A DNA stretch of 64,000 nt from an uncultured Verrucomicrobiae bacterium (GCA_963813025.1 CAWEXO010000011.1:128001-192000), one strand, 5' to 3'. Numbered from the stretch's first letter, positions 27,001-36,000 are shown. Program-made: the numbers.

Positions 27001-30000
27001 CTGCTCTCATGATACCGGGGCAGCGGTCGCTGGCGTTCCCGCGCGCGGAAAAAATTGGGCTTTTATCAGTTCCGGCACTTGGTCGCTCCTCGGCGTAGAG
27101 TTGGCGGAGCCAGTCATTAATGACGAGAGTCTTGCCGCCAATTACACCAACGAACTCGGCTTTGGACGGAAAGTGCGTTTCCTTAAGAATATCCTGGGAC
27201 TCTGGATTCTTCAGGAAGTCAAACGTGAATTGGCTGATCAAGGGTCAAACCTGGATTATCCGGCGCTCAATCTCCTGGCGGAACAAAGTGCTCCCCTCGT
27301 CTCGATTATTAATCCGAATCACGGGCCTTTTTTGAAGCCCGGGCACATGATCGAAAAGATCCAGGAATTTTGCCGGGCGACCGGACAGGTCGTGCCGAGC
27401 GATCCGGGAGCGATTGCGCGGTGTACCCTGGAAAGCCTCGCTCTCTCGTATGCGGATCAGCTGGCAGAGATCCGGCGGCTGGTCGGGACCTCCATCGAAC
27501 TAGTGCACGTCGTCGGCGGAGGCAGTAGAAGCCGTCTGCTGAACCAGTTCACGGCAGACGCTTCACGAATACCGGTTTCAGCGGGTCCGGTCGAGGCGAC
27601 CGCTCTGGGCAATCTCTTAGTCCAAGCCGTCGCTGCCGGTGAATTAGGTTCGCAGGACGATATTCGGGAGGTTATTCGAAACTCGTTTACTTTGGAGACG
27701 TTTCTGCCGGCCAATCCTGATCCATGGTCGGAGGCGCTGGCTTACTACCGAAAGATTATCTCATGAAATCTGACTTCCGCTTTGTACGTTATCTCTGGGA
27801 CGAAGCTTACGCCGCGCGGCTCAGCGCGGTGGAGCGACTGGTCTACCGATCCAACCTGCTGGGCGCTGACCAGCGAATCACGAATACCGGCGGCGGTAAC
27901 ACGTCGTCCAAGGTTGAAGAGAAAGATCCGTTGACTGGCGAACCAGTCGAGGTGCTCTGGGTGAAAGGTTCGGGCGGCGATTTGCGCACGGCGAAAACAG
28001 AGAATTTCGCGAGCCTGACGATGCCCTGCCTCCAACGTCTGCGGACCATCTATGAACGATCCGACAAAAAAGGTCCAAAAACAGATGTTGAGGACCGGAT
28101 GGTGTCCAATTACCCGCACTGCACGTACAATCTTAACCCGCGCGCATCCTCGATTGACACTCCTTTGCACGCCTTCGTTCCTTTTAAGAATGTCGATCAC
28201 ACGCATCCCAACGCGGTGATCGCGGTGGCAGCGTCGAGGAATGGTGAAGCGATCGCCAAGAAGATCTATGGCGATGAGATTGTCTGGCTGCCGTGGCAAC
28301 GCCCGGGATTCGATCTTGGGCTGATGCTGGCCGAGGCTTGCGCTCGCAATCCAAAGGCGAAGGGAGCGATTCTCGGGCAGCACGGTTTAATCAACTGGGC
28401 AAATGACGATCGCGCAGTATACGATCTGAGCCTCGAACTTATTGAAAAGACCGCTGCCCACATTGAACATGAAGCAACAGCGAGTCCTTTTGGCGGTCAA
28501 AAGTATTCCCGCCTCTCTCCGGACGAACGTGACGATCTGCTTGTTGGCATCCTGCCTTGGCTTCGCGGTCAAATCAGCCAGGGGCGGCGCTTGATCGGAA
28601 CCGTCCAGACCGATGACGCTATTCTGCAGTTTGTAAACAGTCACGACGCGCCCCGTTTGGCTGAACTTGGTACATCGTGTCCGGACCACTTCCTGCGCAC
28701 CAAGATCAGGCCCCTTTTTGTCGACTGGGATCCGGTGGCAAAAGATCTCGTGCTCCTCAAAAGAATGCTGGCGGAAGGTCTGGAGAAGTATCGGGCGGAT
28801 TATGCGGCGTACTACAACCGGTGCCGCCACCCCGATTCTCCCGCGATGCGCGATCCTAATCCAACCGTTATTCTCATTCCCGGGCTTGGCATGGCGGCGT
28901 GGGGCAAAGACAAAAGCGAGTCCAGGGTTACCGCGGAATTTTATAATTGTGCGGTTGAAGTCATGCTCGGTGCGGAAACGCTCGACGAGTACATTGCCCT
29001 GCCGCAACAGGAAGCTTTCGACATCGAATATTGGCGCCTGGAAGAGGCCAAGCTGCGGCGTATGCCTCCCGAAAAGGAACTTGCCCGCAAGGTCATTGTT
29101 GTTTTTGGTGCGGGCAGTGGAATCGGGCGTGAAGTGGGCCGTCGGGTCGTGCGCGATGGCGCACACCTCGTGAGCGTCGATTTGAACCAGGATGCCGCGA
29201 ACGACACGGCCGACGAAATTATCCAGACTTACGGCCAAGGTATCGGGGTGGCAGGTTCGGGAGTTTCGCAAGCAGGTCCGGCCGTCGGATTGGCGGCCGA
29301 TATTACCGACCGTCCCTCGGTCCGCAGCGTTTTCCGGAACGCCGTTCTGGCCTATGGCGGATTTGACGGGATCGCGATTACCGCTGCGGTCTTTTTCCCG
29401 CCGGATCCAACTGGAAAATTGTCCGATTCGAAATGGGCCGCGACGCTGAACGTGAACATCACCGGGTCCTATATTGCGGCCGACGAAGGCAGAACCATTC
29501 TGGTTGAACAAGGTTTGCCGGCTTCAATCGTTCTCACGTCGAGTGCCAACGCCATCGTCGCGAAAAAGGGCAGCATCGCTTACGACATCAGCAAGGCGGC
29601 AACCAATCACCTGGTCCGCGAACTCGCGATCGAGTACGCGCCGCTCATCCGAGTCAATGCCGTGGCTCCGGCGACTGTGGTGCAGGGCAGCGGGATGTTT
29701 CCTCGCGAACGCGTAAGAGGATCTCTGCAGAAATACCAGATCACCTTTTTGGAGACTGAATCCACTGAAGAATTGACGGCGAAGCTCGCGCAGTTTTATG
29801 CCGATCGCACCCTGACGCATGTGCCGATCACTCCGGCCGATCAAGCGGAGGCCTACTTCGCCCTGCTGTCGGATCGCTTTCGGCAGACTGCTGGACAGAT
29901 CTTCGCGGTGGATGGCGGTCTGAGCGAGGCGTTCTTGAGGTAGCTAAGGAAGGAGTCACAGGACTCCGTCAGCCTCCATGCTGTTCGCCCTTCGATCCCT

Positions 30001-33000: not shown

Positions 33001-36000
33001 GCACCCGTCAAAGGCATATACCAGGCGCCCAAAAAAGCCTTCTTCAGCGCGCCATGACTCTGCCATCCTTTCAGAACATTCGTCCCAAAATCCCAAGCCT
33101 TGTTGAAGGTGTAAATGAGATCACCATTGGCATCAATCAGGATGAGATCATCATAACCGTTGCGGCGCATCACCATCTCGAACGACGATTGGTAACGATC
33201 GATCGCGCGAGCATACATCGTTTTGGCAAAGGCCTGCCGGAAATCTTTTGGCAAGTTTTCGTTAGCAGCGATATCGCCCGAGAAGTTGTTGAGGAACTTA
33301 CTGCCCTGAGGCGCCGGATTCCGCAGGATATAGACATACTGCACCAGTACGCCCTGCCAGGTCAGCGCGTCGACAGCTTCTGCCTGTTCCAGCGGGCGTC
33401 CCAGTCCTTTCAAAGCTGGGAGCAGCGACTGATCGTACTGCTCTCGCAATTGCTGCCGCAGACTATCAATAAAAGCGTCGTCGACCTTGAATCCACCAGC
33501 GTCGAGGTCGTCCAGCAGATGATCGTAGGCTGACCCCAGTTCGCCAATGGCATACCGGAAGGTTTGCAGATCGGCCTGAGTAGCCAGATCGCGGCGCTGG
33601 TTTGTCAGAAACGTATTGACCGCCAGTGAAATTGACCGGCGCAGAGTTCGCAACTCCCCGAAGCGCACGTCGCGAAGCGAAAAGATGGATAGATAAAAGG
33701 TGGTGACCGCCAACACACCCAAGAGAAGAGCGCACAGGACAATAACAAAGCAGAGCAGCTTACTTCGGATCGACGGTCCCCGCGGACGCAACCGACTTTC
33801 CCGCGAATCCGAGTCCATGGTCGTGCGCGTCATAGTTTGCCGACCAAAGCAGGTCGCCTCAGCACCTGAACAACCCTCGCCCGGCCTCCGCTGATCTGAG
33901 TGAGAAACACGGGATGATCGCTTCTCGCCGCACTTGCCTCATTCTTCGTTGCCCGGAGATCCGAATTCTGCAAAGCTTTCAGGAAGCTTTGTCCGGTCAG
34001 TTCTGGACCCGCTTTATCCAAAGCGGAAACCAGGACCCTCGCGTTGACGTAACCCTCGAGTCCAGCATAAGTAAAGTCCTGCGAACCGACACTGCGCAAA
34101 TCGTCCTGGTATTCGCGCACGACCGGGTCCGACCGATTCTCCGGCGATGGAACAACCTCTGCAATGACCATTCCGTCGGCAGCGGACCCGAGCAGCTTGA
34201 TCAGGTTCTCTGTACCGGTTGGGCTCAAACAGGCAAAGATCACGCCGGTTAAGCCTCGGGCTCGCATGGCCGAAACCAGATTGGCGCAGGGCTGATAAGT
34301 TCCGACCAGCACGACCGCCTCGGGTTTGGCCGGCACCAGTTGGTCGAGCGCGGGTTGGACATCCACCGAATTGCGAATGTAAACGCCTTCTCCGGCTAAC
34401 TCGAGTCCCCGCTGGTGGAGAGCTTCCTCGAGCGCGTTTCGACCGGCATCGCCAAAAGCGTCATCCTGTCGAAAAAGACCGATGCGGGTTATGCCGAGAT
34501 CTTTCGTCAGATGGCTGACAATCATTTCGATCCGCTGCCGGGAAGTGGGGCGATTAACGAAGACCAGCGATTGCGCGGGATCGTCCGATTCCGAGTTGTT
34601 CGTAATAGCCCCGACGAGCGGAATATTCGCTTCGCGCAGCATCGGCCGGACCGCGTCGCAAACCGCGGTTCCCACATATCCGAACAAAGCAAAGACGCGA
34701 TCCTGGTTGATCAATCGCTCGGTGTTCACGACCGCGTTCAACGGTTCGTACCGATCGTCATAAGCAACTAGCTTCAGTTTTCGCCCGTGGACGCCTCCTT
34801 GCCGATTGACTCGGCCAAAATAGGCTTCCGTGGCGAGTTTGAGAGCGGAACCGACGGCCCCGAATCGGCCTGACTGGCAATTCGACATCCCGATGCGGAT
34901 CTCATCTTTCGCCAATGGTCGATCGCGGATCAGAAACTGCGCTGGACCGAGCTGGCAGGTAAACGACGCGGCGGCCAGCAAAAAAACGCGGAGACCAGCC
35001 CTGCAGAATACGAGCTGCGTTCTTTTAAACCGGGACTCTCGCCGCATTAAGATTTCAGAGCACAAGCAGGCAGGTTGAGAACCGAGAAGATATCGCCGGG
35101 AGGCATAAAGTTCAACGCCCGCATTTTTTAGGCTCTTCCGCTACGCTGCCGGAAAGTCTCGATTTTGAAAACGCGGCGGCCGTTCCGGTCGGCGTGAGCG
35201 TGCTGCCGAGCGCGCAGCAATTGGGTGAAATCAACCGATTGATTGCTGCAGGGAAACTGAAAACCCATGTCGCAATGGTTCTACCGTTGGCGGAGGTCAG
35301 GAAGGCGCATCAGTTTTCTCAAAGCGGCCGGACCCGCGGCAAAATTATCTTGCGGCCAGGATAGTCTTGCGAACCTGAGAGCGAGAACCCCGCGGCGGTG
35401 ACGTAACATATTCGCGATGGGCAGCATCCGATATTCCGTATCAAACCCACGCCGGGTTTGCAGCAAGCGCATTACTGCTTCCGGCGTCGGTGCTCGATCC
35501 TCGGGGTGTACGCGATCGATAAATTTTTGAAAGTCGAGCCGTTCACTCGCCTCGAAGCCGAAAAGCGAGCGACATTTTGCCGTCGCCAAATCTTGTCGTG
35601 CGGAATGTCTTACACCCACATCCCGAGGTTCGCCGATTCCGCAGCGAGGCTCATCCGCTCCTCGCTGTCACGCAGCGATCCAGCCGCCCCTTTCCACCTC
35701 GAGCGCTGAACGATTAAGCCCACGATGAGCTCCTGGCCTATGTTGGTGGTTTGGCACAGCATCAAGCTTATCAGCAGCTCCGTTTGGCAAATAAATTGGC
35801 TAACGAAAATCTCGAAGCCGCGGAGATTAACCGGGATGCATCGATGGATTGGGGCCGGTGGGGCGGATGGGGAGGCGCGGGATGGGTAAGGCTAAGATAA
35901 TGGACCGATACGGAACAGTGGCGCGCGAGCGCCCCGGAGCGCGCTCTTTACGGAAGCCATCCCGAACTCATACCAGGTTAAAGTGCGACAACGACAAAGA

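Follow-up and report, generated by a model that had tools for sequence, protein, structure and literature searches.

The question raised by this locus is whether a membrane sensor joined to a CheA-type kinase core, encoded beside CheY and CheX, is a new kind of chemosensory pathway or one that already has a name. The locus lies in a window (the whole stretch of DNA analysed) of 64,000 nucleotides from a soil Verrucomicrobia genome, an uncultured MAG of a Chthoniobacterales family that is 80.2% complete. Our reading, to which we give a probability of about 0.8, is that the four genes form a self-sufficient phosphorelay on a CheA-derived core, the pathway of a class III histidine kinase (HKIII). 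The design of the kinase is real, yet it corresponds to a class that received its name in 2017 (HKIII: Adebali, Petukh, Reznik, Tishkov, Upadhyay and Zhulin, J Bacteriol 2017, 199:e00218-17).

Results

The operon and its genome

The signalling operon occupies 29969-35047 on the minus strand, as do all features described below, in the order periplasmic binding protein (PBP), kinase, CheY, CheX. This four-gene layout had been proposed in an earlier note on this DNA and was confirmed by the open reading frames and by a 4-nt ATGA overlap at each of the three junctions (PBP/kinase, kinase/CheY and CheY/CheX). The PBP ORF (33830-35065) opens at a TTG at 35065, and the ATG at 35047 is the probable start. 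The sensor kinase gene (30801-33833) encodes 1010 aa of HKIII type, with TM1, dCache, TM2, HAMP, PAS-like, Hpt and CheA-type P4 segments. The CheY gene (30436-30804) encodes a single-domain response regulator of 122 aa (Response_reg, E 3.7e-26), and the CheX gene (29969-30439) encodes a phosphatase of 156 aa (PF13690, E 3e-16) that is the sole CheX match of the genome. The genes adjoining the operon are sugar-catabolic or lack any family match. Searches of this 80.2%-complete genome gave no matches to CheW, MCPsignal, FHIPEP (FlhA) or Flagellin_N, in agreement with the earlier claim that it has no CheW, MCP or flagellar genes.

The kinase

Hydrophobic segments at residues ~22-46 and ~455-482, seen as hydropathy peaks, flank a periplasmic sensor domain (residues 47-454; 32472-33695) that consists of a dCache fold and ~130 extra helical residues. 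AF2 modelled this domain with a pLDDT of 89.3 and a pTM of 0.87, and its best Foldseek matches are dCache ligand-binding domains (McpH, 8bmv, at E 2.6e-8, PctA, CtaA and DctB). The HAMP domain (32247-32402) scored E 2.3e-15 in Pfam, above the gathering cut-off. It is followed by a PAS-like alpha/beta domain (residues 531-664; 31842-32243), recognized by its AF2 secondary structure and matched by Pfam PAS_8 at an E of only 0.091. The Pfam figures given earlier for the kinase were reproduced exactly: HAMP at 478-529, Hpt at 699-781, HATPase_c at 867-1009 and a weak dCache_1 match at 184-372 (E 3.8e-4).

Next in the polypeptide is an Hpt domain, a four-helix bundle like P1 of CheA (residues 696-816; 31386-31748), found by Pfam above its cut-off (E 2e-7; 31.6 bits vs 24.6). 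The putative phospho-acceptor, H750 (codon 31584-31586), lies within TVHLVKGDAGML in an HxxKG context like that of CheA P1. Its invariance, claimed earlier, was upheld in 30/30 aligned sequences, and the position is at least 90% conserved among 66 distant representatives. The domain superposes on P1 of T. maritima CheA (1tqg) over 102/105 residues at an rmsd of 2.2 and a VIA-align Z of 13.2, a score to be read with the caution that helical bundles readily reach high Z. Helix D of the bundle ends at 816, and in the AF2 model a disordered or low-confidence linker of ~10 residues leads to the start of the ATPase at 826-828.

The ATP-binding domain, CheA-type P4 (residues 826-1010; 30804-31358), reaches the stop codon, so that the protein ends where P4 ends with no CheW-like P5 beyond. 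It matched P4 of T. maritima CheA at a phmmer E of 6e-28, and its identity to P4 of T. maritima and E. coli CheA is 31-34%, at Z scores of 20-21.5. VIA-align placed 171 residues on CheA 359-540 (Z 21.5, rmsd 2.1), compared to a Z of at most 16.7 for classical kinases, and Foldseek TM scores were 0.78-0.87. All 10 sequence matches in the PDB were CheA. The core had been described as P3-P4, and this part of the earlier description had to be dropped: the likeness to CheA starts at P4 in both sequence and structure. The alignment with the P3P4 construct 4xiv_A (252 residues) covers only its residues 77-252, and coverage of E. coli CheA runs over 338-508 by sequence and 327-508 by structure. No Pfam match to CheW, H-kinase_dim or HisKA was found in the kinase at E 0.1.

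Distribution among relatives

Orthologues of the kinase were found in 41/43 family genomes from 11 genera, at 46-87% identity, and the only split or truncated copies seen were a few at contig ends. CheW was found in 11/43 family genomes, which leaves this genome and 31 more without it, just as had been claimed. Where CheW occurs in the family, it stands with a separate CheA of ~780 aa. These counts (kinase 41/43, CheW 11/43) bear out the view that the kinase occurs independently of CheW, MCPs and flagella. Among 30 family loci, CheY and CheX were each present in 30, CheY at 68-93% identity, and the PBP in 27.

Outside the family, the Hpt-P4 part belongs to a sequence family of 548 representatives at E<=1e-30 with varied sensors. 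Of the best 150 representatives, 149 contain Hpt, and a profile of the PAS-like segment matched 138, where it precedes Hpt by a median of 30 residues. The gap from Hpt to P4 has a median of 21 residues (149 relatives), and P4 is followed by more than 40 residues in only 1/150 and by 40 or fewer in the other 149. A Pfam scan of 66 of these best 150 gave 0 matches to CheW and 0 to H-kinase_dim; their sensors include PilJ (11), HAMP (9), Reg_prop (6) and dCache_1 (5), plus PAS and GAF. Two relatives from the same phylum, with other N-termini and 30-31% identity, both have CheY and CheX downstream. In the operon of a distant relative (G216), a REC-PATAN regulator stands between CheY and CheX.

The binding protein and its predicted docking

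The PBP is a type I periplasmic binding protein (Peripla_BP_6, E 2.4e-62) with a hydrophobic N-terminus that looks like a signal peptide. Among solved structures it is nearest to 4kv7 (E 1.4e-66) and 3lop. The earlier label of a 'Leu/Ile/Val-type' protein stands at the level of the family, through Peripla_BP_6, but not as a statement about the ligand. No permease or ATPase genes of a transporter were found among the scanned neighbours of the PBP gene, which is translationally coupled to the kinase gene. The PBP is absent upstream of the kinase at two loci of one genus (L049 and L050).

The PBP was modelled together with the dCache domain. The predicted complex reached an ipSAE of 0.85, compared to 0.00 for the best of three controls. 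Agreement of contacts between runs was at least 88%, the pLDDT of the partners was at least 84, and both lobes of the PBP touch the dCache domain. The ipSAE mark of docking was met by 116/157 solved complexes and 2/215 mismatched pairs, counts that are only approximate because the analysis used its own alignments. The predicted interface was not enriched in conserved residues compared to the rest of each protein (dCache, 0.49 vs 0.52; PBP, 0.53 vs 0.49), and random subsets reached the observed conservation in 6726/10000 draws for dCache and 2521/10000 for the PBP. The docking score could also stem from solved PBP-sensor complexes that the model had memorized. Overall, occurrence at 27/30 loci together with the predicted docking supports the PBP as part of the signalling unit, and this orphan PBP is probably a co-sensor of the kinase.

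CheY, CheX and candidate output genes

Direct reading of the sequences located residues D7, D8, D52 and K102 in CheY and the motif D85-x3-E89-x2-N92 in CheX. A T2SSE ATPase of 352 aa is PilT-like, aligning with positions 2-322 of 343 of pilT_fam at 269 bits, under the NCBIfam cut-off of 319. The start of its gene is overlapped by a gene with an N_methyl pilin motif. This pair lies ~31 kb from the operon and is unlinked to it. PilM_2 was searched for in this genome and not found, and the sole PATAN protein of the genome is encoded ~35 kb from the operon.

Discussion

Class of the kinase

The HKIII class reportedly consists of kinases in which a sensor is joined to an Hpt domain and a CheA-type ATPase, with neither dimerisation nor CheW-like domains. 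They are said to be partnered with CheX and a single-domain response regulator and to occur in genomes lacking chemotaxis genes, and a type IV pilus output has reportedly been proposed. An unorthodox soluble chemoreceptor is said to accompany them in many instances, without being obligatory. The operon resembles this class closely. Its kinase carries its own sensors (dCache fold, HAMP and PAS-like) in one polypeptide with an Hpt domain with a conserved His and a CheA-type ATPase; it lacks a dimerisation domain (P3, H-kinase_dim or HisKA) and a CheW-like P5. A single-domain response regulator and CheX accompany it at 30/30 family loci and in 2/2 distant relatives, and the host genome lacks chemotaxis genes. 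The co-occurrence with pilT reported for the class has a possible counterpart in the PilT-like gene of the host, which scores below the pilT_fam cut-off. It differs from the class as reported in having no soluble chemoreceptor (no MCPsignal match in the 80%-complete genome), in the conserved, probably docking PBP as a fourth gene and in the Chthoniobacterales-family host. What is new here is the distribution in the family, the conserved upstream PBP with its predicted docking, and the PAS-like domain that accompanies Hpt-P4.

The kinase shares with CheA a P1-like Hpt domain with its His in an HxxKG context, the P4 ATPase, a CheY as presumed substrate and a CheC/CheX-type phosphatase. It differs from CheA in lacking P2, P3, P5, CheW and MCP partners, in its own transmembrane sensor and in the short Hpt-P4 linker. 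On the input side, LuxP-LuxQ and other kinases with binding-protein input offer a parallel: a type I binding protein is encoded beside a kinase whose periplasmic part is tandem-PAS or dCache-like, and the output of LuxQ is that of a classical HisKA hybrid kinase. The operon shares with them the PBP gene beside a dCache kinase and, as predicted, contact through both PBP lobes. It differs in its Hpt-P4 output and in its PBP, which is of the Peripla_BP_6 (LivJ/amide) group and whose binding is predicted. The same two-gene input is met again outside this phylum, where a Peripla_BP_5 PBP is paired with a dCache-HAMP-(PAS)-HisKA-HATPase kinase (loci L013-L017; Methylococcaceae, Methylobacter, Nodularia and Troglogloeales MAGs), the sensor parts showing 27-30% identity over a stretch that, where longest, spans residues 188-636. 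Those kinases have a classical DHp core, often with a receiver, in contrast to Hpt-P4 with CheY and CheX. The Chp/Pil-Chp and cyanobacterial Tax (PATAN-REC) systems, which control type IV pili, likewise use CheY-type regulators as output, but they employ MCPs, CheW and a full CheA, which this operon lacks together with a PATAN regulator. In Synechocystis, PATAN binds PilB1 and PilC (bioRxiv 10.1101/2021.06.11.447907).

Alternative explanations

The earlier note had been right that a sensor and a CheA-type Hpt/ATPase core form one polypeptide, encoded in an operon shared with CheY and CheX. Its further suggestion that the architecture is undescribed did not survive, as the features are those reported for HKIII. 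One can see how an undescribed receptor-kinase fusion, and with it a new kind of pathway, could be suspected: sources name homologues merely 'CheA' or 'HAMP domain-containing protein', and a full-text literature search for HKIII terms gave a single citing paper. We consider this very improbable given the 548 representatives with varied sensors and the presence here of every testable feature reported for the class. Such kinases are also the subject of the title of the 2017 paper and of a summary in a paper citing it, the summary placing them in genomes that lack chemotaxis genes and carry pilT. That the operon is a decaying remnant, a CheA stripped of P3 and P5 and now functionless, is scarcely credible. 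The lack of CheW, MCP and flagellar markers in the genome would fit with decay, but four intact, translationally coupled frames, orthologues across 11 genera, invariant H750 and catalytic motifs, and the separate ~780-aa CheA that accompanies CheW where it is present all argue against it.

The bundle at 696-816 might instead be no monomeric Hpt but a cryptic DHp-like domain that serves a classical kinase for both dimerisation and phospho-acceptance. Foldseek with the whole model does align PAS-DHp-CA kinases such as LOV-kinase chimeras, and high Z scores come easily to helical bundles. This seems improbable, however, given the Pfam Hpt match above the gathering cut-off with none to HisKA, the nearly complete superposition of CheA P1, the P1-like context of the His and an ATPase nearer to CheA P4 than to classical kinases. 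It is unlikely, though less so than these other readings, that dCache binds the ligand itself and that the co-transcribed PBP serves in transport or scavenging or is itself a product under regulation. Direct binding is usual for dCache, the best fold matches are chemoreceptor domains with a ligand bound, the predicted interface is not specially conserved and the PBP is missing at two loci of one genus. Against this stand the ATGA overlap with the kinase gene, the upstream position at 27/30 loci, the lack of permease and ATPase genes among the scanned neighbours, the predicted two-lobed contact with its ipSAE far above the controls, and the same gene pairing in Methylococcaceae, Nodularia and Troglogloeales, where the kinases are classical.

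Proposed mechanism

In the HKIII reading, the orphan PBP would, with reasonable likelihood, take up a small periplasmic ligand and dock both lobes on dCache, as the predicted complex suggests. TM2, HAMP and the conserved PAS-like domain would relay the signal and, instead of P3, would presumably keep the dimer and set the access of Hpt to the ATPase. P4 would then phosphorylate H750, as fold, motif and invariance suggest, and the phosphoryl group would pass to D52 of CheY. CheX would strip it from CheY, which would allow fast signal decay without methylation-based adaptation, and the whole pathway would run without CheW, a receptor array or an MCP. The target of CheY-P may be type IV pilus or secretion-ATPase machinery, the leading guess on circumstantial evidence, though less likely than not to be right.

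More tentatively, the HKIII core may be a PAS-like/Hpt/P4 unit in which dimerisation and gating fall to the PAS-like domain instead of the P3 of CheA and which, in this Chthoniobacterales family, is wired to a LuxP-like, ligand-loaded PBP that clamps dCache. If this is true, the operon would be a chemosensory pathway free of chemoreceptors and of adaptation, with input from a binding protein and a mechanism that could be worked out in vitro.

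The operon is a single translationally coupled unit

Four genes lie on the minus strand of the window, and their ORF positions bear out the coordinates reported in the earlier note. The gene for the periplasmic binding protein (PBP) occupies 33830-35065, with a likely ATG at 35047, and is followed by the genes for the 1010-aa kinase (30801-33833), the 122-aa CheY (30436-30804) and the 156-aa CheX (29969-30439). Every junction is a 4-nt ATGA overlap and, therefore, the four genes constitute one translationally coupled unit. A scan for promoters and terminators stayed at chance level, with 2 promoter-like sites (2.6 expected) and 9 terminator-like sites (6.7 expected). 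One of the two promoter-like sites, 35373-35344, falls within a 112-aa ORF (35281-35619, minus strand) in the gap ahead of the operon. This ORF, with its partial PAS_3 match (E 3e-7), possibly represents a fragmented gene or else a small PAS protein.

On its downstream side (26294-29943), the operon is flanked by an FGGY sugar kinase and a convergent fusion of an aldolase with a short-chain dehydrogenase, and the neighbor on the other side encodes a protein with no family match. No transporter genes were seen adjoining the PBP gene. The downstream synteny is kept in a related locus, L004, and in that of the genus mate, L003, FGGY is reduced to a 46-aa remnant ahead of an OmpR-type regulator. 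Outside the four operon genes, the synteny of our locus with L003 and L004 is confined to unrelated sugar-catabolic genes and an OmpR-type regulator.

The kinase has a P1-like Hpt and a CheA-type P4

The Pfam matches reported earlier for the kinase were reproduced, each above its cut-off: HAMP at 478-529, Hpt at 699-781 and HATPase_c at 867-1009. dCache_1 matched residues 184-372 at an E of only 3.8e-4, and there were no Pfam matches to CheW, H-kinase_dim or HisKA at E 0.1. Hydropathy peaks at residues ~22-46 and ~455-482. When the periplasmic residues 46-458 were modeled with AlphaFold2 (pLDDT 89.3, pTM 0.87), the best Foldseek matches were the dCache ligand-binding domains of McpH, PctA, CtaA, Mlp24 and DctB (E from 2.6e-8); the model has ~130 additional helical residues.

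For residues 530-1010, the model had a pLDDT of 81.8, and the packing of its domains is uncertain because the pTM was 0.40. It contains a PAS-like alpha/beta domain (531-664), a connecting helix (666-692), four helices (697-723, 731-758, 762-779 and 786-816), a low-confidence linker (816-825) and the ATPase from residue 828. The second of the four helices carries H750, in the context TVHLVKGDAGML, and the invariance claimed for this histidine held across 30 sequences with identity down to 30%.

With VIA-align, residues 826-1010 were superposed on Thermotoga maritima CheA 359-540 (Z 21.5, rmsd 2.1, 171 residues, 34% identity) and on Escherichia coli CheA 327-508 (Z 20.2), compared to a Z of at most 16.7 for the ATPase domains of classical kinases. 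Residues 696-808 covered 102 of the 105 residues of CheA P1 (1tqg) with a Z of 13.2 and an rmsd of 2.2, a Z range that helical bundles reach easily. The wide structure comparison of the whole 481-residue model was dominated by P4 and, hence, has little bearing on the PAS-like fold.

All 10 of the sequence matches among solved structures were to CheA and covered P4 alone, spanning 77-252 of the 252-residue P3P4 construct 4xiv_A and 338-508 of E. coli CheA. The operon and domains described in the earlier note are real, but the P3 of its "P3-P4" core is not supported, since the sequence likeness to CheA is restricted to P4. Together with the modeled helices, this limit on the CheA matches defines the core as P4 joined by a short linker to a P1-like Hpt. 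It is without P2, the dimerization domain P3 and the CheW-like P5.

The binding protein is predicted to dock on the dCache domain

CheY has the residues D7, D8, D52 and K102 and matches Response_reg at E 3.7e-26 (Pfam). CheX (Pfam CheX, E 3e-16) carries D85-x3-E89-x2-N92, which we take to be its catalytic motif, and is the sole CheX match in its genome. A tblastn search of this genome gave three weaker paralogues of the PBP and none of the kinase pieces or CheX. The PBP matches Peripla_BP_6 at E 2.4e-62 (Pfam). Its closest solved relatives are structural-genomics entries named as Leu/Ile/Val-binding, 4kv7 (E 1.4e-66) and 3lop, and E. coli LivJ and LivK were matched at only ~1e-18 to 1e-19. NCBIfam gave weak LivJ-type and urea-type matches.

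The complex of the periplasmic domain and the mature PBP was predicted using separate alignments of our own making for each partner. The ipSAE values were 0.84, 0.85 and 0.88, and three controls each gave 0.00. At least 88% of contacts agreed between runs, with a partner pLDDT of at least 84. The docking mark is attained by 116 of 157 solved complexes compared to 2 of 215 mismatched pairs, counts that are only rough for our own alignments. The predicted interface involves both PBP lobes and, on the kinase, residues 235-289, 355, 404-412 and 430-439; sensing of lobe closure would require such a contact. Two points count against the docking: conservation, taken as a separate check, was not enriched at interface positions over the remainder, and the prediction model may have memorized solved complexes of PBPs and sensors.

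Gene pairs of a PBP and a dCache-HAMP protein were also found with classical kinases in Methylococcaceae, Methylobacter, Nodularia and Troglogloeales. This recurrence makes the two-gene input module look portable. In the MAGs of loci L013-L017, Peripla_BP_5 (urea/amide-type) genes stand directly ahead of dCache-HAMP-(PAS)-HisKA kinases, as a recurring input pair of PBP and dCache.

The operon is conserved in its family, and its core is rare in the rest of the phylum

The kinase query found matches at E≤1e-20 in 42 of the 43 genomes of the Chthoniobacterales family. The only match in one of these, G025, was to P4 in a CheA-like frame of 777 aa and, thus, kinase orthologues are counted in 41 of the 43, spanning all 11 genera. 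CheW was found in 11 of the 43 genomes, where it adjoins a separate CheA of ~780 aa. Ten genomes have a completeness of 90% or more with contamination of 5% or less; all 10 have the kinase and a pilT_fam match at E≤1e-50, and 2 have CheW. In the best 30 family loci, including our own, CheY and CheX were downstream of the kinase in every case and the PBP was upstream in 27. Of the other three loci, L043 lacks any upstream DNA, and no PBP turned up in L049 and L050, which share a genus. In L041 (4559-5290, genome G038), the PBP frame ahead of the kinase is 244 aa, matches residues 212-406 alone and may be truncated or frameshifted.

Outside the family, the Hpt-P4 core is rare in the phylum. Among 300 other genomes sampled, 3 had core matches at E≤1e-30, and 2 of these extended across the PAS-like domain, Hpt and P4. 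Both relatives have CheY and CheX directly downstream and different N-termini. A distant operon of this type (L054:6892-7811, G141:C5) has a tandem pair of CheX genes after CheY.

Apparent full-length relatives outside Verrucomicrobiota were rejected: the dCache and P4 matches were in the wrong order for a single protein in L010 and L011, and on opposite strands in L014 and L015. A Pfam scan of L012 and L014 revealed a dCache-HAMP protein (an MCP and a classical kinase, respectively) adjoining a separate, CheW-bearing CheA.

The core belongs to a large class of sensor-fused kinases

A full HMMER search with kinase residues 690-1010 retrieved 35227 cluster representatives at E≤0.001, of which 548 remained at a threshold of E≤1e-30. 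Our own profiles matched P4 in all of the best 150, Hpt in 149 and the PAS-like domain in 138; of the 12 proteins missing the last, 10 were at most 351 aa and two were very long. In these 150 representatives, a median of 5.5 residues followed P4 (more than 40 in one protein only), the gap from Hpt to P4 had a median of 21 residues (more than 60 in 10 of 149), and a median of 30 residues separated the end of the PAS-like domain from Hpt. Pfam was run on 66 of the 150, taken by rank up to a total of 50,000 residues and leaving out proteins above 1500 aa. HATPase_c was present in 66 of 66 and Hpt in 52, and neither CheW nor H-kinase_dim was found in any of the 66. Their sensors included PilJ (11), HAMP (9), Reg_prop/Y_Y_Y (6), dCache_1 (5), Ammonium_transp (2) and several PAS and GAF domains. 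The ESM Atlas feature search, used as a lead only, placed Hpt/HATPase_c clusters of 286-354 aa nearest (score 0.97), with H-kinase_dim clusters from rank 21 on (score ≤0.92).

Sensor-fused kinases with an Hpt-P4 core form a large class. The PAS-like domain accompanies Hpt-P4 regardless of the sensor and, by inference only, is the obvious candidate for the missing dimerizing or gating element. The Hpt-P4 query matched two representatives repeatedly, P0126 (4858 aa) in 28 separate stretches and P0178 (1950 aa) in 13, and either a repetition of kinase-like modules or an artefact of assembly could account for this.

The operon probably encodes a class III histidine kinase

The operon most likely represents a kinase class that already has a name. 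Class III histidine kinases (HKIII) were reportedly named by Adebali et al. in 2017, and are said to have sensory domains, no dimerization domain and, as partners, a single-domain response regulator, CheX and often a soluble chemoreceptor. The same authors reportedly found them in genomes without chemotaxis genes, always with pilT, and are said to have proposed a role in regulating type IV pilus motility. A citing summary (PMC6501615) agrees on the occurrence with pilT in genomes free of chemotaxis genes and on the pilus role. The operon shows each testable feature reported for HKIII, the chemoreceptor and pilT points apart. Its genome is 4.42 Mb in 16 contigs and 80.2% complete, and its closest public relatives are MAGs labeled Verrucomicrobiae (87% identity) and Chthoniobacterales (60%). 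At this completeness, the family search gave no match in it for CheW or for MCPsignal, so the optional chemoreceptor is absent, and none for FHIPEP, Flagellin_N or PilM_2. T2SSF was found in one gene, and a 706-aa T2SSE ATPase is also encoded. The better of two pilT_fam matches scored 269 bits, under the curated cut-off of 319. This genome with zero MCPsignal matches also encodes a 1277-aa CheB_methylest-CheR_N/CheR-PAS-HisKA_3-HATPase_c fusion (contig C8:203502-207335, L052:502-4335, minus strand), listed earlier as g01384.

To our knowledge, HKIII kinases have been described solely by comparative genomics. The literature searched contained no experimental study of them, and the searched passages of the CheA-architecture, MiST 3.0, MiST 4.0 and Agrobacterium papers made no mention of HKIII.

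Possible output and significance

PATAN (DUF4388) binds PilB1 and PilC in Synechocystis, according to a preprint (bioRxiv 10.1101/2021.06.11.447907). The one PATAN protein of our genome is a 461-aa PATAN/FGE-sulfatase fusion. Its gene stands two genes ahead of one for a 148-aa protein with an N_methyl pilin motif, with a 160-aa ORF of no family match as a further member of the cluster, and the pilin-motif gene overlaps by 4 nt the start of a gene for a 352-aa PilT-like T2SSE ATPase. The cluster (C11:122939-126589, L053:2939-6589) lies just outside the window, ahead of position 1, at a distance of ~31-35 kb from the operon. In a distant HKIII-type operon with a 599-aa kinase (L055:6418-7110, G216:C17), a REC-PATAN regulator lies between CheY and CheX, which links the class to a domain that binds type IV pilus motor components. 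These points are circumstantial, and an output to a pilus or secretion ATPase is conceivable, with the odds somewhat against it.

For annotators, a "CheA" label on such kinase genes is no indicator of chemotaxis. The operon family is a well-defined case for experiments, with four translationally coupled genes conserved across 11 genera, a binding protein as its predicted input and a compact core of PAS-like domain, Hpt and P4. It could teach how control of a CheA-type ATPase is achieved in the absence of P3, P5, CheW and receptors. Its input through the binding protein and its three-domain core are the parts worth experiment, and this input and the PAS-like domain of the core may go beyond what is known of the HKIII class.
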